From Candidatus Nomurabacteria bacterium (GTDB lineage: Bacteria > Patescibacteriota > Minisyncoccia > Phycocordibacterales > UBA918), in contig JACKGG010000002.1 of NCBI GenBank assembly GCA_020632035.1, forward strand, positions 24,095 through 88,094: a DNA stretch of 64,000 bases, given 5' to 3'. Below are positions 12,420-52,960 of the stretch, piece by piece (the first letter of the stretch is position 1; each line of letters begins with the position of its first letter). The notes beneath the pieces were generated by a model. That model had not been told where the DNA came from, did not search any database, and worked only from the letters and a program-made list of their open reading frames with translations. Made by a program: the position numbers and the translations under genes.

Positions 12420-12499
12420 GCTCTAGCGCTTGATACCGACATTCTAACATACGTGAGTTATACACACTTCTAAATAATACAGGCTCTTCTTTACTAACG

Positions 12500-12653
12500 G
12501 TGTCTTGTGATGGAGTCGGTTATTACATAATCAATACTCGTTTTGGATGGATTGTTTCGAAACTCACAATCCATCTCAAAAAAGCTTCGACTCGTGCAAG
12601 GCTTTTCAAAGAAAAGCTGCACCCCGAGGCACAGCTTTCACTCCGTTCATTTG
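12500..12653 (-). repeat. Possible degenerate tRNA-3'-linked element downstream of tRNA-Leu(CAA)
   Basis: Minus-strand sense shows a terminator hairpin right after the tRNA, then ttgaaaag…cacgagtcgaa (partial complement of the T-loop), an A/T hairpin ggattgtgagtttcgaaacaatcc, and ccgactccatcac (degenerate copy of the tRNA T-loop/3' stem). Weak match to the family described in findings. Confidence 0.25.
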
Positions 12654-14160: not shown

Positions 14161-14231
14161 GGGTCTATAGTTTAGTGGTAAAATTTCGGTCTCCAAAACC
14201 GACGTCCGAGGTTCGAGTCCTCGTGGACCCG
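14161..14231 (+). tRNA. tRNA-Trp (anticodon CCA)
   Basis: Acceptor GGGTCTA/TGGACCC; anticodon stem TCGGT/ACCGA with loop CTCCAAA; T-arm CGAGG-TTCGAGT-CCTCG; discriminator G. CCA not encoded. Confidence 0.8.
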
Positions 14232-14232
14232 C

Positions 14233-14542
14233 ATAAAACATTACGTCCTAATGCGTCTAGCATTGGGGCGTTTATGTTTTACGGTACTAAGAGGACTCGA
14301 AAAGGTTGCCTGATATTTTGTGACGTAGGAGCAAAAATATCGACAACCTGTACTGAATCTGTAAGATTCGAGTCCTCGTGGACCCGCATAAAACATTACG
14401 TCCTAATGCGTCTAGCATTGGGGCGTTTATGTTTTACGGTACTAAGAGGACTCGAAAAGGTTGCCTGATATTTTGTGACGTAGGAGCAAAAATATCGACA
14501 ACCTGTACTGAATCTGTAAGATTCGAGTCCTCGTGGACCCGC
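14233..14542 (+). repeat. Two perfect tandem copies (155 bp each) of a tRNA-3'-end-linked structured element (family I), directly after tRNA-Trp
   Basis: Units 14233-14387 and 14388-14542 are identical. Each has an A/T hairpin (aaaacat…atgtttt), an anti-T segment gaggactcgaa, the core gaaaaggttgcctGATATTTTGtgacgtaggagCAAAATATCgacaacctgtactGAATCtgtaaGATTC, then gagtcctcgtggacccgc, a copy of the tRNA-Trp T-loop and 3' end. Overlapping track ORFs here are artefacts. Confidence 0.85.
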
Positions 14543-14546
14543 GAGC

Positions 14547-14582
14547 AACAAAACCAACCTGAATAAGGTTGGTTTTGTTTTG
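14547..14582 (+). terminator. Intrinsic terminator after the tRNA-Trp repeat array
   Basis: Stem caaaaccaacc / ggttggttttg followed by TTTTG. Confidence 0.6.
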
Positions 14583-14589
14583 CAAGCGA

Positions 14590-14722
14590 GGGCTACGAGG
14601 ACTCGAAAGCCGGAACCGGTACACAAGCCGACGAGCTTGCGAGGAGGGCTTGTCGGTGAGGCGGGGTCGAGAAAAATTTTCGTAGAAAATTTATTCGTGA
14701 CCGAGTCCTCATGGACCCATAA
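14590..14722 (+). repeat. Third, divergent tRNA-Trp-linked unit (family II architecture)
   Basis: Contains the anti-T segment gaggactcgaaag, a GC-rich hairpin, an A/T hairpin gagaaaaattttc-gta-gaaaatttattc, then gtgaccgagtcctcatggaccc, a degenerate copy of the tRNA-Trp 3' end. Confidence 0.6.
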
Positions 14723-14733
14723 GCCTAATCACT

Positions 14734-15816
14734 TTATTTATCGTAGACAGAAAAATGTGGAGCTGTTATATATCCAACAACTTGCACATCCTCTGTTCGC
14801 AGGCGACCTTTAGCATCTTTTACTAATGCATCAGCTTCTGCTTGAGTAGCGACCTCATACTTTGCAGTTAGACCATTTCTATAAGCTGCTTTTATAACAC
14901 TGACTATATCATCTGTACTTTTCATACCACCTTCGACTCCGTAATCCACACATGTACCATTTTGATGACAAGGATTTTTATGATTTACCCCAGGTGTTGG
15001 AGGCATAGCTTCAGTAACTCGAGCACCAACTACTGTTTTTGATACTTCTGCATGAAAATTAACTAACTTATCCAGAGTTATGGGAGAGACTGAACAAGTA
15101 TTTGAATTCTTGCAAGGCACACCGGCATCTGCCAGAGAACGACAGCCATTAAAACAGGCATCTTCCAATCCTGGCGTAATAGGTGGCTTAGGAGGGTCCA
15201 CACCATTTGGGCAATCCCAATGTTCTTCTTCGGTCTCTCCTCTTGCAACACTATATGTGCAATTACTCGGGAGACATTTCCAAATATTTCCCACTAAAGT
15301 ACAACCCATAGCTACCAGATCCCTGTTTTGTTGGAAAACTTTACTTGGTGGGACAGTATCATTCTGTTCAATACATTCAAGCGTAGACCATGGTCTATTA
15401 TTTAATTCACCTTCTCCACCAAGGAGTAAAGACTTCATAAGAGTGTCAACCAGCAGCCAAGCTCCCATAACAATTAGTATACCTATCAGAGCATTAGTCA
15501 TTTTTTGCTTTGCTTCAGTTTTAGCTGACGTATTACCGCCTGAAGTGACCAAGCTAAATCCTGCCCAAGCAGTAGTTATGGCAAATATCACCAGCATAAC
15601 TCCGATCAACCAGCCTAGGATATTTTCAGCCAACACCACTAAATGACAAGAATTACAGTCTGTTCCTTCGCAAGGAATTAATCCTCGGTCAACTTCCTCA
15701 GTCAGCACTTCTTGAGGCGGGTCTTCAACTGGAGCAGGTTCTTCTATTGGAGCAGAGAGCACGAAACCAGGTAAGACAATCAAACTAAACATCATTATAA
15801 AAATTGCCTTTTTCAT
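14734..15816 (-). CDS. Secreted Cys-rich protein with C-terminal two-helix pilin-like membrane domain (VirB2/TrbC-like topology)
   Basis: Signal peptide MKKAIFIMMFSLIVLPGFVLSAP, then a roughly 200-aa Cys-rich region. C-terminus (…ENILGWLIGVMLVIFAITTAWAGF…ALIGILIVMGAWLLVDTLMK) matches the two-hydrophobic-helix motif of the 31322-33793 paralog cluster. Confidence 0.7.
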   Translation of the reverse strand: MKKAIFIMMFSLIVLPGFVLSAPIEEPAPVEDPPQEVLTEEVDRGLIPCEGTDCNSCHLVVLAENILGWLIGVMLVIFAITTAWAGFSLVTSGGNTSAKTEAKQKMTNALIGILIVMGAWLLVDTLMKSLLLGGEGELNNRPWSTLECIEQNDTVPPSKVFQQNRDLVAMGCTLVGNIWKCLPSNCTYSVARGETEEEHWDCPNGVDPPKPPITPGLEDACFNGCRSLADAGVPCKNSNTCSVSPITLDKLVNFHAEVSKTVVGARVTEAMPPTPGVNHKNPCHQNGTCVDYGVEGGMKSTDDIVSVIKAAYRNGLTAKYEVATQAEADALVKDAKGRLRTEDVQVVGYITAPHFSVYDK

Positions 15817-21927: not shown

Positions 21928-22223
21928 CTAACACAGAGTGAGAAATCAAATTTTTACTTTGATTGATACCGCTAGAAAAAATTTTTCTTTTCTGTGCTAG
22001 TGAAAAGGTATGACCCTTCAAGCTAGAGACGACTATTGACATATAGTTCTCCTTGCGTCTGACTATGTAACACCTAAGTAATTAATATAATATTATTTAT
22101 GATTTGTCAATTTCACAAAACCCCTTGATTTTCCTGGATAAGATGGCCGAACTCTGCTATACTCGCAAACATCTAATTATCAGTACGCCTATCTAGGTGT
22201 TTTAAGTCTAGTTATACAAATAT

Positions 22224-23732
22224 ATGGCAAAAAAAGGCAAAACAACGGCTCCAAATGTGATCAAGCGACCACCAGTTGTGGTGGTCATGGGTCATATTGA
22301 CCACGGAAAATCTACTCTCTTAGACACTATTCGAAAGAGCAATATTGTTGATGGTGAAGCGGGCGGGATCACCCAACACCTTTCGGCTTACGTAGTGCCC
22401 CACAAAACAAAAGACGGGGCTGAAGAAAAAATAACTTTCCTAGACACTCCCGGGCACGCCGCTTTTCAAAAAATGCGCCTCCGGGGCGCCGATGTGGCTG
22501 ATGTGGCTATTCTTATGGTCTCAGCTGAAGATGGCGTGAAGCCACAAACACTCGAAGCGCTTGAGTCTATCAAACAGGCAAATATTCCATACGTTGTTGC
22601 GATCAACAAAATCGACAAACCAGGCGCTGATATTCAACGAACTAAAAATACTCTAATCGAAAACGAAATATATATTGAAGGTATGGGTGGAGATATACCC
22701 TACTCACCAATCTCTGCAAAGAGTGGTGAAGGTATAGATGACCTTCTTGATCTAGTCATCCTGGCCGCTGATTTGGCTGAGCTTAAGGGAGACACCAACG
22801 CTTCTGCCACTGGGAAAGTGATCGAAGGCAAAATGGACCCGAAACGAGGCAACACTGCTACCCTTTTGGTAAACAATGGCACTCTCAAGAGCGGACAATT
22901 TGTTGTTTCTGGTACGACTTTTTCTCCTGTTAGGATCATGGAAGATTTTCAAGGTAAAACAGTCAAGGAAGCCGGGTTATCGACACCTGTTAGGATAGTT
23001 GGCTTTACTGACATTCCTGAAGTTGGAGCAGAGTTCACCACTGTAGCGAGCAAAAAAGAAGCTGAGTTGGCTATAACACAGGCCCAACTCGATAGTACTC
23101 CTGTGGTTCAAGCGAAGACAAATTCAAAACTGCCTGTTATTCCGATCCTAATTAAAGCTGATGTTCTAGGAACTATTGATGCTATCCAACACGAACTAGA
23201 AAAGTTTGAGTCAGACCGAATCACCGTACGCATTATTGATACTGGAGTCGGAGACATTTCAGTTAGTGATGTCCAGAATGTCAGCGCTACTAAAGAAGCG
23301 ATTATCGTTGGTTTTAATGTAAAGGTTGAGCGACCAGCTCAAGACTTGGCAGACCGGCTCGGAGTGGAAATAGACACCTTCAGCATCATCTACGAACTGT
23401 CAGAATGGTTAGAAACTGCTCTAAAAAATCGTACTCCTAAATTGAAAGAAAAAGTTGAAACTGGCCTGGTTAAAATCCTCAAACACTTTAGCGTACAAAA
23501 AAATACTCATGTCCTGGGCGGGAGAGTAGAAGATGGTGTTTTAAAAATGAATCAACACGTGATCATTCTTCGGCGTGATATTGAAATCGGGACCGGTGTC
23601 ATCAAAAATATTCAACAAATGAAATCAGATGTTCAGCAAGTAGACGAAGGAGAATTCGGAATGCAACTTGAAACAAGGGCAGAAATCGCTCCAGGAGACT
23701 ACTTGAAGCCTTTTGATACAGTCGTATCATAG
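22224..23732 (+). CDS. infB: Translation initiation factor IF-2 (short form)
   Basis: G-domain motifs VVVMGHIDHGKSTLLD, DTPGH, NKID, followed by beta-barrel domains. Only 502 aa, with almost no N-terminal extension. Confidence 0.9.
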   Translation: MAKKGKTTAPNVIKRPPVVVVMGHIDHGKSTLLDTIRKSNIVDGEAGGITQHLSAYVVPHKTKDGAEEKITFLDTPGHAAFQKMRLRGADVADVAILMVSAEDGVKPQTLEALESIKQANIPYVVAINKIDKPGADIQRTKNTLIENEIYIEGMGGDIPYSPISAKSGEGIDDLLDLVILAADLAELKGDTNASATGKVIEGKMDPKRGNTATLLVNNGTLKSGQFVVSGTTFSPVRIMEDFQGKTVKEAGLSTPVRIVGFTDIPEVGAEFTTVASKKEAELAITQAQLDSTPVVQAKTNSKLPVIPILIKADVLGTIDAIQHELEKFESDRITVRIIDTGVGDISVSDVQNVSATKEAIIVGFNVKVERPAQDLADRLGVEIDTFSIIYELSEWLETALKNRTPKLKEKVETGLVKILKHFSVQKNTHVLGGRVEDGVLKMNQHVIILRRDIEIGTGVIKNIQQMKSDVQQVDEGEFGMQLETRAEIAPGDYLKPFDTVVS

Positions 23733-23738
23733 AATTTT

Positions 23739-24083
23739 ATGGCTAACCCAGACAGAAACATTCGTCTATCCGGAATCCTAAAGGAGCTAATTGCTACCTT
23801 TATTCGACATGAAGCAAATAGTAATCCAATGATTACTCTGACCAACATTGACCTTTCTCCAGACGGCAAACGCGCTTTACTTTTTGTTACAACTATTCCA
23901 GACGGCAGAGAACAAGATGCTCTCATCTTCCTGAAGCGTAATGCTACAAACTTACGGAATTACCTAAAGAAAAATGCTCGGATAAAAAATATTCCTCATT
24001 TAGAATTCATGGTTGATGCCGGCGAACGACATAGACAACACATGGATGAGCTGGTGAGAGAGATTGAAGATAAGAAAAAATAA
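23739..24083 (+). CDS. rbfA: Ribosome-binding factor A
   Basis: 114 aa, immediately downstream of infB (conserved synteny). KH-like pattern …RLSGILKELIATFI…DGKRALLFVT…. Confidence 0.8.
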   Translation: MANPDRNIRLSGILKELIATFIRHEANSNPMITLTNIDLSPDGKRALLFVTTIPDGREQDALIFLKRNATNLRNYLKKNARIKNIPHLEFMVDAGERHRQHMDELVREIEDKKK

Positions 24084-24084
24084 T

Positions 24085-24117
24085 ACCGCCCAGAACCAAA
24101 AAGGTTCGGGCGGTTTA
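24085..24117 (+). terminator. Intrinsic terminator after rbfA
   Basis: Stem accgcccagaacc / ggttcgggcggt followed by TTT. Confidence 0.6.
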
Positions 24118-24325
24118 AGTTTGTGAAGCTTAAGCTATTCGCTTGGTCTGTTTCATTTTGCATACCTCATCAAAGAACCTGAAGCTACTGTAGTTTATAT
24201 ACGTTTCATTTGCAATATCGAGGTTGCTATAGGGACAAGCAAATGTATACCGTACTTAATATGCAAGGAACAAAACCTTTGAACAGAGCCTAGAATAATG
24301 CTACAGTACTGCGTACAAATGAAAT

Positions 24326-24398
24326 GTCCTGGTGGCGAAGTGGTTAACGCTACGGTTTGCAAAACCGTCATACGTGGGTTCGACTCCCACCCAGGACT
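24326..24398 (+). tRNA. tRNA-Cys (anticodon GCA)
   Basis: Acceptor GTCCTGG/CCAGGAC; anticodon stem ACGGT/ACCGT with loop TTGCAAA; T-arm GTGGG-TTCGACT-CCCAC. Confidence 0.85.
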
Positions 24399-24472
24399 CA
24401 CGAATTAAAAACTACATCCGTAGCTTTTAATTCGTGAGTGCTACCAAATACTATTTTAGTATTTACACTTTC

Positions 24473-24558
24473 GCCCGGGTGGTGGAATCGGTAGACACGA
24501 GGGACTTAAAATCCCTTGCCTTTTAAACGGCGTGCGGGTTCAATTCCCGCCCCGGGCA
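24473..24558 (+). tRNA. tRNA-Leu (anticodon TAA), long variable arm
   Basis: Acceptor GCCCGGG/CCCGGGC; anticodon stem AGGGA/TCCCT with loop CTTAAAA; T-arm CGGGTTCAATTCCCG; discriminator A. Confidence 0.8.
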
Positions 24559-24561
24559 CCG

Positions 24562-24987
24562 AAATAATGAGTCAGACCTTGTGTCTGGCTTATTATTTTG
24601 GTCAAGGGAATTGAAAAGGTTAGTCAGATATTTTGGAGCTTGCGAACAAAATATCGACAACCTGTACTGATCCTGTAAGGATCAATTCCCGCCCCGGGCA
24701 CCGAAATAATGAGTCAGACCTTGTGTCTGGCTTATTATTTTGGTCAAGGGAATTGAAAAGGTTAGTCAGATATTTTGGAGCTTGCGAACAAAATATCGAC
24801 AACCTGTACTGATCCTGTAAGGATCAATTCCCGCCCCGGGCACCGAAATAATGAGTCAGACCTTGTGTCTGGCTTATTATTTTGGTCAAGGGAATTGAAA
24901 AGGTTAGTCAGATATTTTGGAGCTTGCGAACAAAATATCGACAACCTGTACTGATCCTGTAAGGATCAATTCCCGCCCCGGGCACCG
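24562..24987 (+). repeat. Three tandem 142-bp copies of a tRNA-3'-end-linked structured element (family I), directly after tRNA-Leu(TAA)
   Basis: Units 24562-24703, 24704-24845 and 24846-24987 are essentially identical. Two identical 60-aa track ORFs 142 bp apart confirm the period. Each unit has a terminator-like hairpin (aataatgagtcagac…gtctggcttattatttt), an anti-T segment gggaattga, the core gaaaaggttagtcaGATATTTTGgagcttgcgaaCAAAATATCgacaacctgtactGATCCtgtaaGGATC, then aattcccgccccgggcaccg, a copy of the tRNA-Leu T-loop and 3' end. Confidence 0.85.
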
Positions 24988-25103
24988 AAAGTAGAAGTCG
25001 GAACTGGTTTCCGGCTTTTACTTTTGATTGTAATCGTCAGATCAGTTTTACATTGAAATGATCATAGGATAAATGCAAGTCAACGCACATATTCCAACAT
25101 ATT

Positions 25104-26105
25104 TTATTTCATTAACTCATTTCCAATTTTTTCAAAAAAATCTAACACCGGGATATTGTACTCAGCCTGCCATAAGTGTGACCATACATTTCGGCTACTT
25201 TGTGACAATAGAACGTAAGCGCCATCATTAATATACCCTTGTTGCACAAGCATTGCTTCAGCTTTTTTTTGACACGAAATATCTACAATTCCATCATCAA
25301 CACTATGAAACATTTTGAATGGTATTTTCTGATTTGAACTTACAGTCTCCAAACTTCTATCTCTAAAATGAGCATTAGGTAAACATGCACCCGCCTCAGT
25401 AATCTGTTTGTTGGTCTCCCGATCAAATCCAGCGCCCTTAGCACTCTCTCGCAATGAAAGTGAAGGATCACAATCGAAATAGGTTCCATACGGATCACCA
25501 GATGCTACAGGGGCAAATGCTGTAATAAGATTATCAAAGTGTGTTGCGGTTAGAATTGCCATATATCCACCAGTTGACTCTCCAGTGAGGAACGTGTTTA
25601 TAGAACTTCCGACTGGTCGCTTACTAGGGACAATCTCAGTGATTACTTGTTCAATAAATGGTAGGTCCACATTATCTGTCCTACCTTCTACAAGTGTCGC
25701 ATCCCATCGCTTTCCGCAAACAAGACCGCCGGAATCAGTTACAACATCATTTGTCGATTCTAGTAGAAATACAGCAAATCCTCTTTCTACCGCTAAATCA
25801 CTAAAATCCACTTGTGGTTTCACTAGTCTAAGACTTTCATAACACCATTGGGTATAATCCCCTCCTCCACCATGCATTGCTATAACGGCTCCCTTTGTCC
25901 ATTTTTCTGGCCCCTTCCATAAAACAGATCGCTCTCGTCCATCAACGTGAATAGTGATCTTTTCAAAACCCCGGTCTACACAACTTTGTTCATTCAGTAA
26001 GATCGACTCCTCATTTGATACCGATCCATCTCGAATCCGTGAAACTACGTTCAACACGATCAGGATCAAAAAAATGATTATCGTGGTCTTGATAAGCTTT
26101 CTCAT
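25104..26105 (-). CDS. Secreted alpha/beta-hydrolase (esterase / PHB-depolymerase-like)
   Basis: N-terminal signal/TM segment; oxyanion-hole-like HGGGGDYTQW and nucleophile elbow GESTGGYMA (G-x-S-x-G). Confidence 0.7.
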   Translation of the reverse strand: MRKLIKTTIIIFLILIVLNVVSRIRDGSVSNEESILLNEQSCVDRGFEKITIHVDGRERSVLWKGPEKWTKGAVIAMHGGGGDYTQWCYESLRLVKPQVDFSDLAVERGFAVFLLESTNDVVTDSGGLVCGKRWDATLVEGRTDNVDLPFIEQVITEIVPSKRPVGSSINTFLTGESTGGYMAILTATHFDNLITAFAPVASGDPYGTYFDCDPSLSLRESAKGAGFDRETNKQITEAGACLPNAHFRDRSLETVSSNQKIPFKMFHSVDDGIVDISCQKKAEAMLVQQGYINDGAYVLLSQSSRNVWSHLWQAEYNIPVLDFFEKIGNELMK

Positions 26106-26163
26106 ATAATAATTTTACCACGGGTAAAACTTTGCTAGTTGGACTATGTAAATGTATTTAGTT

Positions 26164-26451
26164 CTAATTCAATTTCTTATATAAAGCACCTGTCAAAACC
26201 AATACGACAACCCCTGTCATTAAAATCATGTGCGGATTTTCGTTAAAATACGGTATTTGATCTATAACTTTTTCAAACCCATAAAACGTAGCGACCAGAC
26301 CAAAGGAAGAAAGAAGGACAAATATCATCGGAAACCTCGCAAAAGCTGAATCTCTCACGGTACTAAACTTTCCGGTCAGCGACTCGCTGATTTTTTCAAT
26401 TTTCTTTATTTCAGCTTCTGCTCTTTCCTTCTGACTTTGTAATAAATTCAT
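26164..26451 (-). CDS. Hypothetical small membrane protein (2 TM)
   Basis: 95-aa ORF with an amphipathic N-terminus and two hydrophobic helices (MIFVLLSSFGLVATFYGF, LMTGVVVLVLTGALY). Confidence 0.45.
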   Translation of the reverse strand: MNLLQSQKERAEAEIKKIEKISESLTGKFSTVRDSAFARFPMIFVLLSSFGLVATFYGFEKVIDQIPYFNENPHMILMTGVVVLVLTGALYKKLN

Positions 26452-26539
26452 ATTCTAAATTATAGCAATTAATTTGAAATTAGTGATTAATTACCTTGTA
26501 ATATGTATTTAATTATTGTAAACTCAGCCCACAAAACAT

Positions 26540-26612
26540 GCGCCTTTAGCTCAGTCGGTAGAGCAGCTGCCTCTTAAGCAGACGGTCCCAGGTTCGAGCC
26601 CTGGAAGGCGCA
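26540..26612 (+). tRNA. tRNA-Lys (anticodon CTT)
   Basis: Acceptor GCGCCTT/AAGGCGC; D-arm GCTC-AGTCGGTA-GAGC; anticodon loop CTCTTAA; T-arm CCAGG-TTCGAGC-CCTGG. Followed by a perfect 17-bp hairpin (ggaatcatattaaaaga…tcttttaatatgattcc). Confidence 0.8.
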
Positions 26613-26703
26613 CAATGGAATCATATTAAAAGATTACGTCTTTTAATATGATTCCTAGCCTTGAGTAATAGTTCCTGCTATACTCACGGTCACAATTAAA
26701 TAT

Positions 26704-26786
26704 GCGCAGGTGGCGAAATTGGTATACGCGCTAGTTTTAGGCACTAGTGGAGCAATCCGTGGAGGTTCAAGTCCTCTCCTGCGCAC
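26704..26786 (+). tRNA. tRNA-Leu (anticodon TAG), long variable arm
   Basis: Acceptor GCGCAGG/CCTGCGC; anticodon stem CTAGT/ACTAG with loop TTTAGGC; variable arm TGGAGCAATCCGTG; T-arm GGAGG-TTCAAGT-CCTCT. Confidence 0.8.
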
Positions 26787-26815
26787 TAAGAAAACCCACT
26801 TTGGTGGGTTTTTGT

Positions 26816-26946
26816 GTGCTCAGGAAGCAAAGTCTGGAAGACTTTGTGTGAGGGTTTGAAAAGGTTGCCAGTTATTTTGGAGCTTGTGAACAAAATAACG
26901 ACAACCTGTACTGAACTCGTAGAGTTCAATTCCTCTCCTGCGCACA
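26816..26946 (+). repeat. Single copy of the tRNA-3'-end-linked structured element (family I) after tRNA-Leu(TAG)
   Basis: A terminator hairpin (aaaacccac…gtgggttttt) at 26787-26815 precedes the unit. The unit has gagggtttgaaaaggttgccaGTTATTTTGgagcttgtgaaCAAAATAACgacaacctgtactGAACTCgtaGAGTTC, then aattcctctcctgcgcaca, a near-copy of the tRNA-Leu(TAG) T-loop and 3' end. Both stems differ from loci A and B only by compensatory changes. Confidence 0.8.
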
Positions 26947-26949
26947 TAT

Positions 26950-26980
26950 AACAAAAAACCGGCTATGCCGGTTTTTTGTT
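26950..26980. terminator. Bidirectional hairpin terminator
   Basis: Stem aacaaaaaaccggc / gccggttttttgtt with T runs on both sides; sits between the repeat unit and the convergent trhO. Confidence 0.65.
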
Positions 26981-28016
26981 ATGCGACTAATCTCGTCTTC
27001 TCAAACGGCTTTCGCTTCCGTATGTATAAATTGTAGTATTTGGCCAGAGTCTTCTTTGTTTGAGTCGGAAGCTTGTCTACTTGCGCGCACTTCCAAGAAC
27101 AATAGCCGTCTTTCTTTTTCATACAAGAATCACAGCCAATAAAAAGAATATGACAAATTTGATTTTTGCAGTGGTGATGTGTGTCGCTCTTAGTTTCCTT
27201 GCAAAGATGACAGTTAGAAATGATTTCATCTCCCACTCTTTCACCTAATCTCTCATCAAACACGAAGTTTTTGCCCTTAAATTTGTTCTCCAACCCTTGT
27301 TGCTTTACCTGGTGAGCGTAGTCAATAATCCCTCCCTTTAGGTGTCGCACGTCTTCAAAGCCATTATGCTTAAGCCAGGCACTAGCTTTCTCACAACGAA
27401 TTCCGCCAGTACAGTACAAAGCAATTTTTTTATTCTTATGAATTTTAAGTAGTTCTGGAGTCTTTTTTAATTCATCACGGAAAGTAACTACATTCGGAGT
27501 AATAGCAGATTCAAAGTGACCAACTTCAGATTCATAGTTATTGCGCATATCTACCACCACTGCATCTGGATCTTCGATGTATTGGTTCATCTCCTTTGCA
27601 GTTAGATAAGCTCCGGTGTTGGTCACATCGAAAGAAGCATCATCAAGGCCGTCGGCGACGATTTTTTTACGAACTTTAATATTTAATTTGTAGAAAGATG
27701 GAATATCTGCTTCTTCAACGGCAATCTTGTATGGTATCCCGGCCAATTCCGGCTGAGATTGTACCCAAGCATCGAACTGATCCCAATACATTTTAGGAAC
27801 GTTCATTTGAGCATTAATACCTTCATTGGCAATATATATACGACCAAAGCAATCTAGCTCCGACCACTTATCAAGGAGTCGACGCCGAAAAGCTTCTGGG
27901 TCAGAAATCTTCACATAACGGTAGAAAGACAGCGTAGTTCGTGGCCTTTCATCCATAGCAGCTAGCCGGCGCTTTTCAGCACGACTAGTCGGATCTGTCC
28001 TTACAGCTAGATTCAT
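26979..28016 (-). CDS. trhO: Rhodanese-domain tRNA uridine(34) hydroxylase TrhO (YceA/UPF0176 family) with Cys-rich C-terminal extension
   Basis: …LSFYRYVKISDPEAFRRRLLDKWSELDCFGRIYIANEGINAQM… then rhodanese region (…IALYCTGGIRCEKASAWLK…). C-terminal CHLCKETKSDTHHHCKNQICHILFIGCDSCMKKKDGYCSWKC. Start may be the internal Met at 27956. Confidence 0.8.
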   Translation of the reverse strand: MNLAVRTDPTSRAEKRRLAAMDERPRTTLSFYRYVKISDPEAFRRRLLDKWSELDCFGRIYIANEGINAQMNVPKMYWDQFDAWVQSQPELAGIPYKIAVEEADIPSFYKLNIKVRKKIVADGLDDASFDVTNTGAYLTAKEMNQYIEDPDAVVVDMRNNYESEVGHFESAITPNVVTFRDELKKTPELLKIHKNKKIALYCTGGIRCEKASAWLKHNGFEDVRHLKGGIIDYAHQVKQQGLENKFKGKNFVFDERLGERVGDEIISNCHLCKETKSDTHHHCKNQICHILFIGCDSCMKKKDGYCSWKCAQVDKLPTQTKKTLAKYYNLYIRKRKPFEKTRLVA

Positions 28017-28134
28017 AGGTCAAAATCATACCTAATGCCCGGTTGCTTCGCAACCCGCCCACACCCAAAACCACCCAAACCAGCAAAATACTCAAAATCT
28101 GGCCTAAAATAACGCTCTTTTCTACCCTCTTTGC

Positions 28135-30641: not shown

Positions 30642-31181
30642 CTAGTTTGTCACTGGAGGTTCAATACTTCTATCAACGGGACCTGGGTTTCCTCCTCCGG
30701 TGCCAGGACCAGGATTACTTCCTCCAGTGCCGGGGCCTGGATTACTTCCTCCAGTACCTGGACCAGGGTTTTCACCTCCTGTGCCGGGACCGGGGTTTTC
30801 ACCTCCTGTGCCGGGACCGGGGTTTTCACCACCGGGGATACTCGTATCAGGTAATACAAAAGCATCTCCACAGTCTGGTCCGCTTGGGTTATTGGCACAA
30901 TCTAGTTGTTTATCAAGACCAAAAGTAGAAGTAGCAATACTCAATATAGCAAAAGCTGAAAGCATCACCACTAGGCCAATTATCCCAAAAGTGATATGCT
31001 TTACTCCCTGCCCCCTCGCTGTTTCGTTGGCAGAATTAACAAAGTATTCTACACAACCCCAAACAAAAACAAGAAAAGCTACCGCACTAAGAAGAGCGAT
31101 AGTAGGAAACAATATAATGTCATTAAATTTATCTACAAATTTAGCAGCTTCTTCGGTCGCTTGTTGTTGAGGTGTTGCCAT
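30642..31181 (-). CDS. Two-helix pilin-like membrane protein (VirB2/TrbC-like topology) with C-terminal (GENPGPGTG)x6 repeat tail
   Basis: Two hydrophobic helices (ILFPTIALLSAVAFLVFVWG…/…TFGIIGLVVMLSAFAILSIA) separated by a short polar loop, then six nine-residue Gly/Pro repeats. Confidence 0.7.
   Translation of the reverse strand: MATPQQQATEEAAKFVDKFNDIILFPTIALLSAVAFLVFVWGCVEYFVNSANETARGQGVKHITFGIIGLVVMLSAFAILSIATSTFGLDKQLDCANNPSGPDCGDAFVLPDTSIPGGENPGPGTGGENPGPGTGGENPGPGTGGSNPGPGTGGSNPGPGTGGGNPGPVDRSIEPPVTN
30683..30843 (-). repeat. In-frame 27-bp tandem repeat (6 copies) encoding GENPGPGTG
   Basis: cctcctccggtgccaggaccaggattactt… and related units repeated head-to-tail; the track protein shows GENPGPGTGG x3 then GSNPGPGTGG x2 and GGNPGP. 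Confidence 0.85.
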
Positions 31182-31321: not shown

Positions 31322-31738
31322 TTAAGAACTTGGAGGAGGTATAGTGACCCCTTTAACATCTGTATCACTAACAGCGGTTCCTTTGTCGAGACCGGTGCTT
31401 GATGAGAGTAAGTTGATTACTCCCCAGAAAACGATAATGATTACAAAACCTAGCGTTGCGTAGATCATTAAGCTTTTTCCTTTTTCTTTTGCTTCATCGT
31501 TGGCTCCACCAAAAATGAAGTAGCGGAACATACCCCAGACAAAGAACAGGAAGGCAATCCCAATAATAAACGGAATAAGTATTGTGTTTGCAAAGGTTAG
31601 TAGATCTTCAAGTAATTTACCAAAACCTCCACCGGTACCGTCATCTGCTAAACCAGCGGCTGAAACCAGAAATGGCAAGGCAAGCATTGAAAAGCTTAGT
31701 GCTATCAGTAAGTTTTTCTTTATAGTTGAGACTATCAT
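31322..31738 (-). CDS. Secreted two-helix pilin-like protein (VirB2/TrbC-like topology), paralog 1
   Basis: Signal peptide, then …NTILIPFIIGIAFLFFVWGMFRYFIFGGANDEAKEKGKSLMIYATLGFVIIIVFWGVINLLSSSTGL…. Confidence 0.7.
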   Translation of the reverse strand: MIVSTIKKNLLIALSFSMLALPFLVSAAGLADDGTGGGFGKLLEDLLTFANTILIPFIIGIAFLFFVWGMFRYFIFGGANDEAKEKGKSLMIYATLGFVIIIVFWGVINLLSSSTGLDKGTAVSDTDVKGVTIPPPSS

Positions 31739-31760
31739 GTATATAAGAATTAATTGATAA

Positions 31761-32153
31761 TTAAGTGCTTGGTGCTACTGGTATATCAGCATTAATTTTA
31801 GGAATATTTTGCACCTCTTTACCACCAAGGCCTGTACTTGATGAAAGCAAGTTGATTACTCCCCAGAAGACAATTATAAGCACAAAACCTAGGGTAGCCC
31901 AGATCATTAAGCTTTTTCCTTTTTCTTTTGCTTCGTCGTTGGCCCCACCAGCAATAAAGTAGCGGAACATACCCCAGACGAACACCAAGAAACCAATACC
32001 AATAATAAATGGAATAATGACAGTATTGGTGAATTCTAAAATATTCCCCAGTAGAGTTCCAAACTTTCCGCCATTTGGATTAAATTCAGCCAAGGCCAGC
32101 ATAGGCATGACAGACAATATTGCTCCACTAGTGAGAAAACTTATTTTTTTCAT
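31761..32153 (-). CDS. Secreted two-helix pilin-like protein, paralog 2
   Basis: …NTVIIPFIIGIGFLVFVWGMFRYFIAGGANDEAKEKGKSLMIWATLGFVLIIVFWGVINLLSSSTGL…; about 75% identical to paralog 1. Confidence 0.7.
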   Translation of the reverse strand: MKKISFLTSGAILSVMPMLALAEFNPNGGKFGTLLGNILEFTNTVIIPFIIGIGFLVFVWGMFRYFIAGGANDEAKEKGKSLMIWATLGFVLIIVFWGVINLLSSSTGLGGKEVQNIPKINADIPVAPST

Positions 32154-32241
32154 ATGTTTTATAAATAAACTGATAACGTTGTAACGTTTACCTTATTATA
32201 TGACACTAGTTAGTATGTCTAGTGAGTTATTCACCTCCTGC

Positions 32242-32619
32242 TTATGGAACGATAACTGAAGGAATATTCTGGATTGACTCTCCCTCAAGTCCAGTACTGC
32301 TAGTTAATAGGTTGATTACACCAAAGAAAATGATGATCACCACAAAACCAATAACAGCATGGATCATTAAACTTCTTCCTTTTACTTTTTTCTCGTCATC
32401 GGCTCCACCCATTATGAAATATAGAAACATTCCCCAAACAAAGAATAGGAAACCAATACCAATAATAAACGGTATGAGGACGTCATTTATGAACTGCATC
32501 AAGTTAATCAGAAGATCTTCAAACCCACCACCATTTGATGAATCAGCAATTTGTGCTGAAGAAACAAAAGGTAGAAGTAATACTGAACTAACTGGAATTG
32601 TGGCTAAAATCTTTTTCAT
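32242..32619 (-). CDS. Secreted two-helix pilin-like protein, paralog 3
   Basis: …NDVLIPFIIGIGFLFFVWGMFLYFIMGGADDEKKVKGRSLMIHAVIGFVVIIIFFGVINLLTSSTGL…. Confidence 0.7.
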   Translation of the reverse strand: MKKILATIPVSSVLLLPFVSSAQIADSSNGGGFEDLLINLMQFINDVLIPFIIGIGFLFFVWGMFLYFIMGGADDEKKVKGRSLMIHAVIGFVVIIIFFGVINLLTSSTGLEGESIQNIPSVIVP

Positions 32620-32700
32620 AAATTAATATTATTTAATTGCTTAAAATTATACCCGGATAAACTAAAATGTAAAGGGTCTTCTGTGGTCACTAAGCCTAGC

Positions 32701-32949
32701 CTAGCCGAACAAAGTTGACTTTATCATGGCTACAATCCCCCAAGCACTTATCATTACCACAAACGCTATAACGGCAGATACTGCGTAACTCTTGCCCTCT
32801 TCTACTTTTTTTCCGTCTCCGGCATGAATGATCCAGGAATCAATCATCTTCCAAACAAAATACACGAACATAGCCGCAAATATAGTTGGTATGATTATGT
32901 TTATGAGGCCGATTATTAAACCTACTAGTTCTTTGTAATCTGTTGGCAT
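32701..32949 (-). CDS. Small two-helix membrane protein, divergent pilin-like paralog
   Basis: 82 aa with two hydrophobic helices flanking GDGKKVEEGKS; same architecture, lower similarity. Confidence 0.55.
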   Translation of the reverse strand: MPTDYKELVGLIIGLINIIIPTIFAAMFVYFVWKMIDSWIIHAGDGKKVEEGKSYAVSAVIAFVVMISAWGIVAMIKSTLFG

Positions 32950-32975
32950 GATAATTTGATTAAAGGTTGTAAGTA

Positions 32976-33239
32976 TTAAAAAGCATTTACTACGTTTTGC
33001 ACAATCTGGGTAATGGCTACTGCACCAATCAGTATCACTCCACCGATTACTCCATATAAGAGTGCTTGAGAAGCCACCTTTATTTTCTCTGGATTACCAC
33101 GGGCCGTCACATACAAGAAGCCAGCGTATATAAGATAAAATATTACAATCGGCGTTGCCATTATTATAACCACATTCAAAACAGCGACCAGCAACTCTGA
33201 TATGTTCGGAAATTTTAATGGGTTATCGAAATTTTCCAT
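32976..33239 (-). CDS. Small two-helix membrane protein, pilin-like paralog (subfamily B)
   Basis: …VVIIMATPIVIFYLIYAGFLYVTARGNPEKIKVASQALLYGVIGGVILIGAVAITQIV…; nearly identical motif to the C-terminus of the 33254-33793 protein. Confidence 0.65.
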   Translation of the reverse strand: MENFDNPLKFPNISELLVAVLNVVIIMATPIVIFYLIYAGFLYVTARGNPEKIKVASQALLYGVIGGVILIGAVAITQIVQNVVNAF

Positions 33240-33253
33240 ATTAAATATATTTT

Positions 33254-33793
33254 CTAAGCCCGGAAAGCATTTATTATATTTGATAGTATTTCCGACAGGG
33301 CGACAGAGCCTAGTAAAATCACACCTCCAATAATGGCATACGTGAGTGCGGTAGTCGCTTCTTGTATTTTGGTTGGGTTTCCTCTGGCAGTTACGTAGAG
33401 GAAACCAGCATAAATAATATACAAAACAATGATCGGCGTAGCGATTACGATGAATATACTAAGCAGTGCTGACAATAAACCTTCTATTGAAGTGATACTC
33501 TCACTTAAAGGGCTTTTTACAGTGTATTTTATTCCAGTAGTCTCAACGCTAGTTGATTTTGTTCCTGGTTCAGGTTCAAGTTCTTCACCCCAACAATCAC
33601 AGTCAAAAAATCCATCTTCTGCAGGACTTGGGTTACATCTTGGAAGATTTGGTGGTTCACAAGAGCATACGTTACCGGGCTGGAGACCGTTACATGGTTC
33701 TTGAGCGATTGAAACTTGTGCGACACTGAAAAGTGTCAGGATAAACAGAAAAATGCTTACACTGATCACTGTTTTGTTTATACTGTATTTCAT
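33254..33793 (-). CDS. Secreted Cys-rich protein fused to C-terminal two-helix pilin-like domain (subfamily B)
   Basis: Signal peptide; Cys-rich segment CNGLQPGNVCSCEPPNLPRCNPSPAEDGFFDCDCWGEE; then …FIVIATPIIVLYIIYAGFLYVTARGNPTKIQEATTALTYAIIGGVILLGSVAL…. Confidence 0.7.
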   Translation of the reverse strand: MKYSINKTVISVSIFLFILTLFSVAQVSIAQEPCNGLQPGNVCSCEPPNLPRCNPSPAEDGFFDCDCWGEELEPEPGTKSTSVETTGIKYTVKSPLSESITSIEGLLSALLSIFIVIATPIIVLYIIYAGFLYVTARGNPTKIQEATTALTYAIIGGVILLGSVALSEILSNIINAFRA

Positions 33794-39934: not shown

Positions 39935-40087
39935 ATGCTTAATCTTCACGGACCGCCCGCCAAGGGCAAACTGGCTTCGTCCAAGGTAAATTTTTATTTT
40001 AAACGCGGCGACAACGACAACCTGCGCGACGACGGCGGCCACCTGGGCGACGACGGCGGCCACCTGGGCGATATTATCTCAGACTGA
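39935..40087 (+). CDS. Candidate small ORF (50 aa) with good RBS; contains the GC-rich tandem repeat
   Basis: AGAGGGA 5 nt before ATG. MLNLHGPPAKGKLASSKVNFYFKRGDNDNLRDDGGHLGDDGGHLGDIISD. Below the track's length cut-off. A 17-aa ORF (39808-39861, MRREKRFIARQSRSETT) with RBS GGGAGA lies upstream. Confidence 0.3.
   Translation: MLNLHGPPAKGKLASSKVNFYFKRGDNDNLRDDGGHLGDDGGHLGDIISD
40028..40069. repeat. 21-bp GC-rich perfect tandem direct repeat (2 copies)
   Basis: gacgacggcggccacctgggc occurs twice head-to-tail; about 75% GC in an otherwise AT-rich intergenic region. Confidence 0.85.
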
Positions 40088-47813: not shown

Positions 47814-47864
47814 AGACTAAATATCATTAACGATATAAATAATACTACTATGATGATTTCTTAC

Positions 47865-48000
47865 AAACGTCTACCTATCATCAATAATATAAAAAATACT
47901 ACTACAGTGATCGGTTATAAACGTCTACCTATCATCAATAATAAGAATCTTACTTCAGTAGTAAATAGACCAAGCTACCTATCCTTGATGATAGATAGTA
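47865..48000. repeat. Direct and inverted repeats in the AT-rich ftsA-ftsZ spacer
   Basis: aaacgtctacctatcatcaataata at 47865-47889 and 47919-47943 (25-bp perfect direct repeat); partial inverted copy ctacctatccttgatgatag near 47972. Confidence 0.8.
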
Positions 48001-49439: not shown

Positions 49440-49645
49440 AATATAATTCTGTCATAACTGGCTCAATGCTAAATATCAGCTCCTCAGTCAGTATGAATGG
49501 GGTGAGACTGTCGCAAGACCTTGCCAGACAATTTACAAATACTTGAAGTAAAGTGTCGAAAAGGTGTACCGTCTAGTCGAGAAGGTACCGGCATTTCTAC
49601 GTAGAAGTAAACCTAAATAGTTTACTTAGAAGTAAGAACAAACAA

Positions 49646-52575: not shown

Positions 52576-52960
52576 CAAAACGAGACTTCGTCTCGACACA
52601 AGGAGCGCGCCGAAGGCGCGCGAGAAGAAGAAAGTGGAAAAATACCCTGTCGCGTAGCGACGGATTGGGACGGGACGGGTGCGAGAGTACTTAGTAGATT
52701 TTGCACGAAGTGCAAAAATATACTTAGTAACTCGTGACCACAAGTACTTTTGTCTCAAAAATAATTCAGGGCCCATGTTTTCGTTCGTGATCCAAGAGAA
52801 AGACGCTAGTGCGTCTTTTGTGGGAATCGAACCAGCGGAGTCATCCTGCACGGAGCGAAGCGAGTACAGAAGTCGAGGCATGTCCCGCGGCACTTCTTAT
52901 TTTGTGAGGTACGAAACAAAATAAGTTAGTGACCGTCAGGATCATTCCCCGGGGGATCAC
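52576..52960 (+). repeat. tRNA-Glu-linked structured element(s) (family II architecture) ending in a copy of the tRNA-Glu 3' end
   Basis: Several hairpins (cgagacttcgtctcg; gcgcgccgaaggcgcgc; tttgcacgaagtgcaaaa). Anti-T segment gggaatcgaacc at 52822-52833. A/T hairpin cttattttgt-gaggtacgaa-acaaaataag. Then gtgaccgtcaggatcattccccgggggatcac at 52929-52960, which copies the tRNA-Glu T-loop and 3' end (attccccgtgggatcac). Confidence 0.65.

Follow-up and report, generated by a model that had tools for sequence, protein, structure and literature searches.

Perfect 142-bp repeats behind a tRNA-Leu(TAA) gene of Candidatus Nomurabacteria: possible tandem copies of a non-coding cassette matched to tRNA 3′ ends

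In the 64,000-nt stretch of Candidatus Nomurabacteria contig JACKGG010000002.1 analysed here (the window; positions are counted from its first base), three identical 142-bp units lie in tandem between tRNA-Leu(TAA) and the terminator native to that locus. They belong to a large family with a conserved folded core, found behind many different tRNA genes of Patescibacteria, ultra-small bacteria of the Candidate Phyla Radiation (CPR), and they carry both an antisense and a sense copy of the 3′ end of their own tRNA. Our tentative reading, plausible but held with some reserve, is that they are a tandemly repeated integrative cassette, non-coding and non-autonomous, whose target is the 3′ end of tRNA genes. 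Tandem Repeats Finder (TRF) delimits the array to 24540–24990 (period 142, 3.2 copies, 100% matches, no indels), bearing out the three perfect units that a sequence-only reading of this DNA had reported over 24473–25030, a range that takes in the tRNA itself and the native terminator. The parts of the locus are:

24473–24560, plus strand: tRNA-Leu(TAA), host gene of the array (ARAGORN; Rfam tRNA, 61.5 bits).
24540–24561, plus strand: first direct-repeat copy of the T segment, from T-loop position 55 to just beyond the discriminator; identical to 24682–24703, 24824–24845 and 24966–24987.
24562–24703, plus strand: unit 1 (142 bp), made up of hairpin, antisense, core, small hairpin and T segment (TRF, 100% identity; covariance model (CM) match, 95 bits).
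24704–24845, plus strand: unit 2, same sequence as unit 1 (TRF, CM).
24846–24987, plus strand: unit 3, same sequence as unit 1 (TRF, CM).
24561–24599, plus strand: element-borne terminator-like hairpin with a 17-bp stem and U-run (by folding; absent from the empty site of the related locus L001).
24606–24614, plus strand: antisense to T-loop and T-stem, GGGAATTGA, reverse complement of TCAATTCCC; 5′ strand of helix P1.
24613–24670, plus strand: core GAAAAGGTT...GACAACCTGTACTGA, with junction AAA, helix P2 (AGGTT/AACCT), P3 and junction GTACTGA (exact pattern in the family; covariation).
24627–24655, plus strand: P3 hairpin within the core, GATATTTTG/CAAAATATC.
24671–24681, plus strand: P4 hairpin TCC-TGTAA-GGA, directly adjoining the T segment (4/4 pairs covary across the family).
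24682–24703, plus strand: T segment closing unit 1, TCAATTCCCGCCCCGGGCACCG, identical to tRNA positions 24540–24561 (22 bases).
24988–25026, plus strand: native terminator of the tRNA-Leu(TAA) locus, pushed downstream by the array (its homologue directly follows the tRNA in the L001 empty site).

A single unit folds as a hairpin followed by a three-way junction (z = −6.2 as RNA, −6.8 as DNA). Folding agrees with the terminator-like hairpin noticed earlier at the start of each unit, and its position is the one at which other members of the family hold cargo genes (e.g. L067; comparison loci are given L numbers throughout). The two identical open reading frames (ORFs) of 60 amino acids (aa) are artefacts of the repeat, as had been supposed from the period: they overlap, lie on the minus strand and have TTG starts (24620–24802 and 24762–24944). 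A search for a sigma-70-like promoter in the array found none, and ARAGORN and Rfam call only the upstream tRNA, with no cloverleaf or tRNA-like domain inside the units. A T-loop intron or split tRNA was considered and rejected, the upstream tRNA being complete and the antisense not being the 5′ strand of the T-stem.

The pattern GAAAAGGTT-N(25-45)-GACAACCTGTACTGA was used to scan one genome per GTDB species, metagenomes and viral contigs. The GTDB scan returned 98 stretches, two of them chance matches and the rest almost all from Patescibacteria (Paceibacteria, Kaiserbacteria, Nomurabacteria, Saccharibacteria), and metagenomes supplied at least 120 further stretches. No match to the core pattern was found among 2.9 million viral contigs, and a phage origin was rejected on that ground. 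GTDB genomes and metagenomes together hold at least 208 distinct exact-core copies at 216 loci, nearly all in Patescibacteria; a covariance model built on 98 copies finds 160 copies in 716 kb of loci. A same-strand tRNA lies 40–105 nt upstream of 126 of the 189 evaluable copies, with 17 amino-acid identities among the matches listed, and the remaining evaluable copies are later array units, cargo-bearing units or copies for which no tRNA was called. The share of tRNAs with an element in these genomes is about a quarter or higher. The exact direct repeat is most often 21–22 nt long; it begins at tRNA position 54/55 and stops at, or one base past, the end of the tRNA.

The modular design proposed from the window, a constant core between locus-specific ends, recurs in about 200 members at 17 tRNA identities. 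The same 58-nt core stands at tRNA-Leu(TAA) in the window, tRNA-Pro (L054) and tRNA-Val (L087), with different flanks each time. Within the window the Leu(TAA)-type core is also found at tRNA-Trp (14299–14356 and 14454–14511, flanks GAGGACTCGAA / TTCGAGTCCTC), so that the earlier observation of a shared core with swapped flanks stands, and tRNA-Leu(TAG) adds a third locus. The core 15-mer occurs six times in the window versus 1.6 expected, three mismatches allowed. Rfam 15, run on both arrays at the gathering threshold and at E ≤ 10, gave only tRNA and noise, known self-cleaving ribozyme families being included in the search. The family is real, non-random and widespread, and literature searches, including one with the core sequence itself, found no earlier description of it; a paper on group I introns in Patescibacteria tRNAs deals with position 35/36, an unrelated matter.

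RNAalifold and a hand-set structure concur in a three-way junction: P1 is the antisense paired with the tRNA-end copy, P2 and P3 form one arm, and P4 is a 3–4-bp hairpin with loop UGUAA that has no linker to the tRNA-end copy and uses tRNA position 54 in its closing pair. Paired cells make up 91.8% in the 98 sequences, versus 79.4% after shuffling and 33–48% with the structure slid along the alignment. Covariation across units, suggested earlier as a check, is strong (score 0.353 versus 0.133; reached by none of 500 shuffles), with double changes at 6 of 10 pairs of P1, 9 of 9 of P3 and 4 of 4 of P4; P2 is held constant by the search pattern in the 98-sequence set and covaries in variant cores, e.g. 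AGCUUUUG/CAAAAGGU and GCCCGAUUG/CAAUUGGGG. The second hairpin had been given as GATCC/GGATC at tRNA-Leu and GAATC/GATTC at tRNA-Trp: the two compensatory pairs are correct, but family-wide only the inner three to four pairs covary, the outer G-A/U-C pairs being invariant bases in competition with the long helix. G·U pairs outnumber A·C pairs (98 versus 50), which identifies the tRNA-sense strand as the folding strand. At other tRNAs a longer core, unrelated to the one described so far (family A), also forms a three-way junction closed by an antisense:tRNA-end helix (family B), and the hairpin-tip motif UGA-GC-loop-GC-GAA is common to both families.

Such a fold could instead belong to a resident functional non-coding RNA, a structured small RNA or ribozyme dedicated to the preceding tRNA; this is the main rival and a serious one, which we regard as possible but less likely. 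Its antisense arm would pair with the 3′ third of the tRNA (precursor or mature) for processing, quality control, regulation or T-loop cleavage/repair, the sense copy would mask or mimic the substrate, and new copies would arise by duplication and core exchange between loci. The covarying stems and the G·U excess on the sense strand speak for this, together with the invariant junction strands (AAA and GUACUGA), the conserved loops, the GNRA-like tips, the tRNA-matched helix and hairpin-tip motif present in both cores A and B different as these are, and the share of tRNAs that carry an element. A terminator-like hairpin lies between tRNA and antisense in at least 66% of copies, separating most of them from the tRNA, and this counts against an RNA dedicated to it, as do the promoter search of the Leu(TAA) array and the lack of any Rfam match, known self-cleaving ribozymes included.

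In L079, L193, L088 and probably L002, a related insertion of ~66–70 nt lies in the P4 loop right after TGTAA, and after it come GTAA, the remainder of P4 and the tRNA-end copy; the insertion may be a small element nested in the unit, or else an additional, optional arm. The sequence after TGTAA in these four copies had been considered as the end of an opposite-strand gene, an interpretation rejected in favour of the P4-loop insertion. In L029, L035, L044 and L089 a Shine-Dalgarno-like AAGGAG lies within ~5 nt after the tRNA, with a tiny ORF next in L029.

The antisense is matched to its own tRNA. An uninterrupted helix of at least 9 bp can be formed with the own tRNA in 77% of cases and with non-cognate tRNAs in 22% (mean 9.6 versus 5.7 bp), and the T-loop complementarity first noticed in the window is thereby present in further members. 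At many loci complementarity spans all of positions 54–74, either continuously (L009, L088, L025) or interrupted by a P0 hairpin, often with loop UGGGA (L003, L023, L059, L030). In ~18 cases the tRNA copy is the better fit for the antisense, and in three (including L025 and L065) the distal copy is, a bias expected under neutrality too since only the tRNA copy is constrained; that the antisense still fits the tRNA where the distal copy has decayed would suit a resident RNA. In L061 and L068 the distal T segment resembles a different allele of the tRNA end, as though displaced. Two modes of entry are conceivable: insertion just after position 74, which the sharp end of the repeat at the tRNA end favours, and replacement of positions 54–74 by crossover in the T-loop, which L061 and L068 favour, with L025 and L065 pointing the opposite way.

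The tRNA-Leu loci of relatives, named earlier as the place to look for presence/absence differences, include both empty and occupied sites. L001, a metagenome-assembled genome of Candidatus Nomurabacteria that is ~84% identical to window 22125–28031, has an identical tRNA-Leu(TAA) followed directly by a homologue of the terminator after unit 3 of the window; the insert therefore comprises the units and nothing else, with the tRNA-end repeat at its borders, and the terminator-like hairpin of the unit is part of the element. A second empty site at tRNA-Leu(TAA) was found in L017, and L085 has one unit there versus three in the window. The Leu(TAA) element is 92% identical between window and L085, the flanking genes 73%, and the 11 differing positions of the unit include three base pairs changed compensatorily. 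At tRNA-Leu(TAG), 162 of 164 aligned positions match L001, with flanks at 87–92%. Conservation above the flanks is what a resident RNA would show; close relatives without the element at the same tRNA indicate that it is dispensable, which counts against such an RNA, and perfectly repeated units, decayed copies and gene cargo are what mobile DNA typically shows. Directly beside the array, a minus-strand ORF of 333 aa (25104–26105; signal-peptide-like N-terminus, GESTGG motif, hydrolase-like look, without Pfam match) is missing from L001, the closest relative, and so marks a gene-sized indel.

Genes are carried in some members. The cargo of L067, located between the tRNA-side T segment and the antisense, consists of a TTGACA/TATAAT promoter, an ORF for a probable secreted protein of 78 aa and a terminator; L046 carries a cytidine/deoxycytidylate-deaminase-family gene, and L073 is an array with several small ORFs without Pfam match. 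These cargo arrays sit behind tRNA-His (L067), tRNA-Gly (L046) and tRNA-Asn (L073). Tandem arrays occur in the window, L016, L065 and L142, and mixed arrays of families A and B exist, with distal copies more decayed. In L142, three perfect 171-bp units end in a partial copy that extends 56 nt beyond the tRNA-end copy, an overrun suggesting that unequal crossing-over or slippage also adds to array growth.

Arrays with cargo genes, and a stretch of identity that begins in the T-loop and reaches the 3′ end of the tRNA, a classic trait of tyrosine-integrase attachment (att) sites, might be taken to indicate functionless scars of integrase-driven islands or prophages, leftover attL/attR arms amplified by slippage. 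We consider this highly improbable: the core persists among distantly related lineages of Patescibacteria and three helices show compensatory changes, the 100–170-bp units are complete and perfectly repeated, the window lacks any remnant of an integrase and 1.34 Mb of loci hold a single Xer-like ORF, and the viral contigs gave no match.

As an integrative cassette, a unit would comprise four parts: a ‘bay’ holding a terminator hairpin only (as in the window) or real genes, an antisense of 9–21 nt to tRNA positions 54/55–74, the conserved three-way-junction core, and a sense copy of tRNA positions 54/55–74. Lying between the intact tRNA and the original terminator, the cassette leaves the tRNA whole and keeps termination. 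The element would move as a folded single strand, single-stranded DNA (ssDNA) or possibly RNA, in which the antisense:sense helix would close the junction, mark the element’s own end and choose the tRNA end to which it is matched. This folded, target-matched module would act in cis as a recombination or guide site for an enzyme encoded elsewhere and supplied in trans, and by analogy may resemble attC, the attP of CTX-phi and the internal guides of IS608. Arrays would lengthen through successive insertions, or through unequal crossing-over of the 21–25-nt direct repeats.

A number of observations weigh against an integrative cassette. Pfam scans of the ~50 ORFs of the window found no recombinase, transposase or reverse transcriptase; neighbour clustering within 2.5 kb, on 96 and then 216 loci, gave housekeeping synteny only and no recombinase-type enrichment; and a direct search of 1.34 Mb (218 loci) yielded one TnpA-like ORF (L020) and the single Xer-like ORF. 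The mobile module proposed in the sequence-only reading is partly supported: it has gain and loss, copy-number variation, cargo and conservation above flanks in its favour, and lacks a recombinase in the window or enriched near the 216 loci. The empty sites could be due to precise loss rather than being the ancestral state, a resident RNA under purifying selection would likewise be better conserved than its flanks, and the evidence as to whether the antisense partners the tRNA or the distal T segment appears mixed. Invariant junction bases, conserved loops (UGUAA; UGGGA in P0) and the GA/GAA tip have the look of a functional RNA rather than of a plain att site. An integrative cassette also leaves unexplained how a core acquires flanks for a new tRNA, and the apparent retargeting would be explained equally well by core exchange between resident elements.

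A further rival is an RNA-guided or RNA-catalysed mobile element, in which the core would be a ribozyme or a guide scaffold in the manner of the omega-RNA of TnpB or the bridge RNA of IS110, with the tRNA-matched flanks as guide(s), and in which either the RNA or a nuclease or recombinase encoded in trans would steer insertion or homing to the tRNA gene. This is unlikely in our view. The scaffold meets the target-identical 21 nt without a linker, like omega-RNAs whose guide comes from the flank, matching is locus-specific and the structure has RNA-like features; with no cis-encoded protein present, any protein involved has to be supplied in trans. A sense and an antisense copy of one 21-nt segment would, however, pair together and not with DNA, a nuclease would find a target in the restored tRNA itself, and the cores (60–100 nt) are below the size of known omega and bridge RNAs and have no Rfam match. 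No TnpB, IscB or IS110 genes were seen within 2.5 kb of the elements at 216 loci, and terminators lie upstream, with no promoter found in the Leu(TAA) array.

A protein of ~225–265 aa with an N-terminal helix-turn-helix (HTH) and a ‘LYWGEGGK’ motif is encoded in 13 loci (e.g. L100 10192–10881, L052 4023–4715), mostly immediately ahead of a same-strand tRNA-Gly(GCC) or tRNA-Met gene; Pfam finds the HTH only, and the motif is, by eye, one that we take to be reminiscent of LAGLIDADG endonucleases. As a partner of the element this ~225-aa protein was rejected, its location upstream of tRNA-Gly/Met having no tie to the element.

A bolder form of the integrative cassette would make it a self-sufficient nucleic-acid targeting device, in which the target-complementary arm programs the destination and the core is either a catalytic RNA or ssDNA fold or a handle for a novel trans-acting class of enzyme. 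This appears to us rather doubtful, though conceivable. It would amount to a natural, reprogrammable insertion system free of protein genes and, in an RNA-only version, to a new ribozyme class directed at the tRNA T-loop.

Of the window's eight tRNAs, five have at least one element. Besides the Leu(TAA) array, these are:

14233–14542, plus strand: two perfect 155-bp family-A units behind tRNA-Trp (14161–14232; TRF; CM 106 and 104 bits).
14543–14719, plus strand: family-B element behind the Trp array, with terminator hairpin, antisense (14596–14607), a different three-way-junction core and a decayed T segment (14702–14719).
26787–26945, plus strand: single family-A element behind tRNA-Leu(TAG) (CM; 2 of 164 aligned positions differ from L001), with terminator 26791–26814, P0 hairpin 26828–26846, antisense 26850–26860, core 26858–26914, P4 26915–26925 and T segment 26925–26945 (one G>T at 26930).
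12495–12652, minus strand: decayed family-A variant behind tRNA-Leu(CAA) (CM 39 bits, E = 5e-9), with anti-acceptor, P0, antisense split by a hairpin, variant core and a T segment mutated at several positions.
52787–52960, plus strand: family-B element behind tRNA-Glu, with anti-acceptor 52787–52793, P0, antisense 52820–52831, core and T segment 52944–52960.

A degenerate family-B core without flanks lies at 52577–52745, ahead of the complete tRNA-Glu element. An orphan core-like sequence (49500–49607; CM 24 bits, E = 1e-4) was found between ftsZ and a thioredoxin-reductase-like gene, with neither a tRNA nor matched flanks.

The window itself is core chromosome (SerRS, DprA, TopA, RelA/SpoT, ParB, MiaA, ClpB, IF2, RbfA, GyrA, S1, Pth, FtsA, FtsZ, Ddl, GlmS), and the neighbours of the arrays, examined for an integrase, are MiaA, IF2, RbfA, a rhodanese-domain protein, a T4SS-pilin-like protein and the hydrolase-like ORF. 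Paralogous ORFs matching T4SS_pilin (PF18895) are located at 31322–33793 and 14734–15816, and 31380–32487 acts as repeated DNA in comparisons with relatives. Other repeats are tandem repeats of 27/54-nt period at 30677–30830, in overlapping ORFs without Pfam match, 2.3 copies of a 54-nt unit between ftsA and ftsZ (47822–47943), and 21-nt repeats at 40004–40071, upstream of the S1 gene.

If the units are integrative cassettes, Patescibacteria would hold hundreds of tiny gene-free cassettes that occupy tRNA loci through base pairing and a fold and sometimes ferry genes, a new route of gene flow in organisms with very few classical mobile elements and a compact natural case of target-matched, possibly programmable insertion. 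If they are instead resident RNAs, at least a quarter of the tRNAs in these reduced genomes would have a dedicated structured partner RNA, which would be new tRNA biology. Under either reading the family is large, well defined, without an Rfam entry and open to testing in the few culturable, transformable Saccharibacteria, among which Southlakia epibionticum has reportedly been manipulated genetically by natural transformation.

Among known systems, integron cassettes resemble the units in forming arrays of short units at one fixed site, empty or with one or two genes, and their attC sites, like the elements here, are imperfect inverted repeats that fold on one strand with strand-biased pairing. 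Unlike integrons, the arrays have no IntI, attI or Pc promoter beside them (no tyrosine recombinase among the ~50 ORFs of the window) and lack GTTRRRY R/L boxes: the junction reads ...GCT/TCGAATCC or GGA/TCAATTCC (the slash marking the boundary), with C in place of a purine as the fourth base after GTT. A conserved three-way junction lies between the arms, where attC has a variable loop; the arms copy the adjacent tRNA, and the target is the tRNA end.

Islands and prophages that target tRNA genes likewise leave the tRNA intact with a direct repeat from T-loop to 3′ end (21–22 nt here), may occupy one tRNA in tandem or serially, and place their own sequence downstream of the tRNA. They differ from the 100–170-bp units, which have no integrase and whose cargo ORFs encode a deaminase and small proteins, and which add an antisense of the att segment, a covarying core and occupancy of a quarter or more of a genome’s tRNAs.

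IS200/IS605 elements and palindrome-associated transposable elements (PATE) share single-strand hairpins, an internal sequence that pairs with target and own end, and protein-free derivatives mobilised in trans. The guides of IS608 are, in contrast, ~4 nt long and accompanied by no long direct repeat, whereas the units here have 9–21-bp pairing and a 21-nt repeat; IS200/IS605 elements insert 3′ of a short target without duplication, and the units are flanked by a 21–22-nt direct repeat. In CTX-phi and integrative mobile elements exploiting Xer (IMEX), inverted copies of the target site pair in one strand to mimic the chromosomal site, tandem arrays form and the recombinase is not self-encoded, as could be the case here; the elements here have tRNA ends in place of dif as their target and measure a hundred-odd bases where CTX-phi is a whole phage, and the loci contain only one Xer-like ORF.

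The IS110 bridge RNA and the TnpB/IscB omega-RNAs also set a conserved structured scaffold beside target-matching segments. The elements described here differ in having no protein gene of this kind within 2.5 kb (216 loci), in containing both sense and antisense segments, in a far smaller scaffold and in the lack of any sequence or structure match. The hammerhead ribozyme is likewise a three-way junction, in which one strand is GAAA-like and another contains CUGA; comparison by hand led to its rejection, as the order of helices and strands is a misfit (CUGA comes right after the 3′ strand of P2), the G8-A9 pair, the A15.1-U16.1 pair and stem I are missing, and Rfam gives no match even at E ≤ 10. 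Miniature inverted-repeat transposable elements (MITEs) have constant terminal inverted repeats and duplicate a short target, whereas the inverted segments here vary by locus and equal the neighbouring tRNA.

Dada transposons carry part of an RNA gene, so that the target remains functional. One account (PMC8869645) describes their specific insertion, in fish, into multicopy small RNA genes such as tRNA genes. They are eukaryotic and transposase-encoding, with no antisense segment and no structured core. As defining features of the integron, CTX-phi and IS608 kinds were not found in the family, we place it under the broad heading of site-specific elements that insert at tRNA genes.

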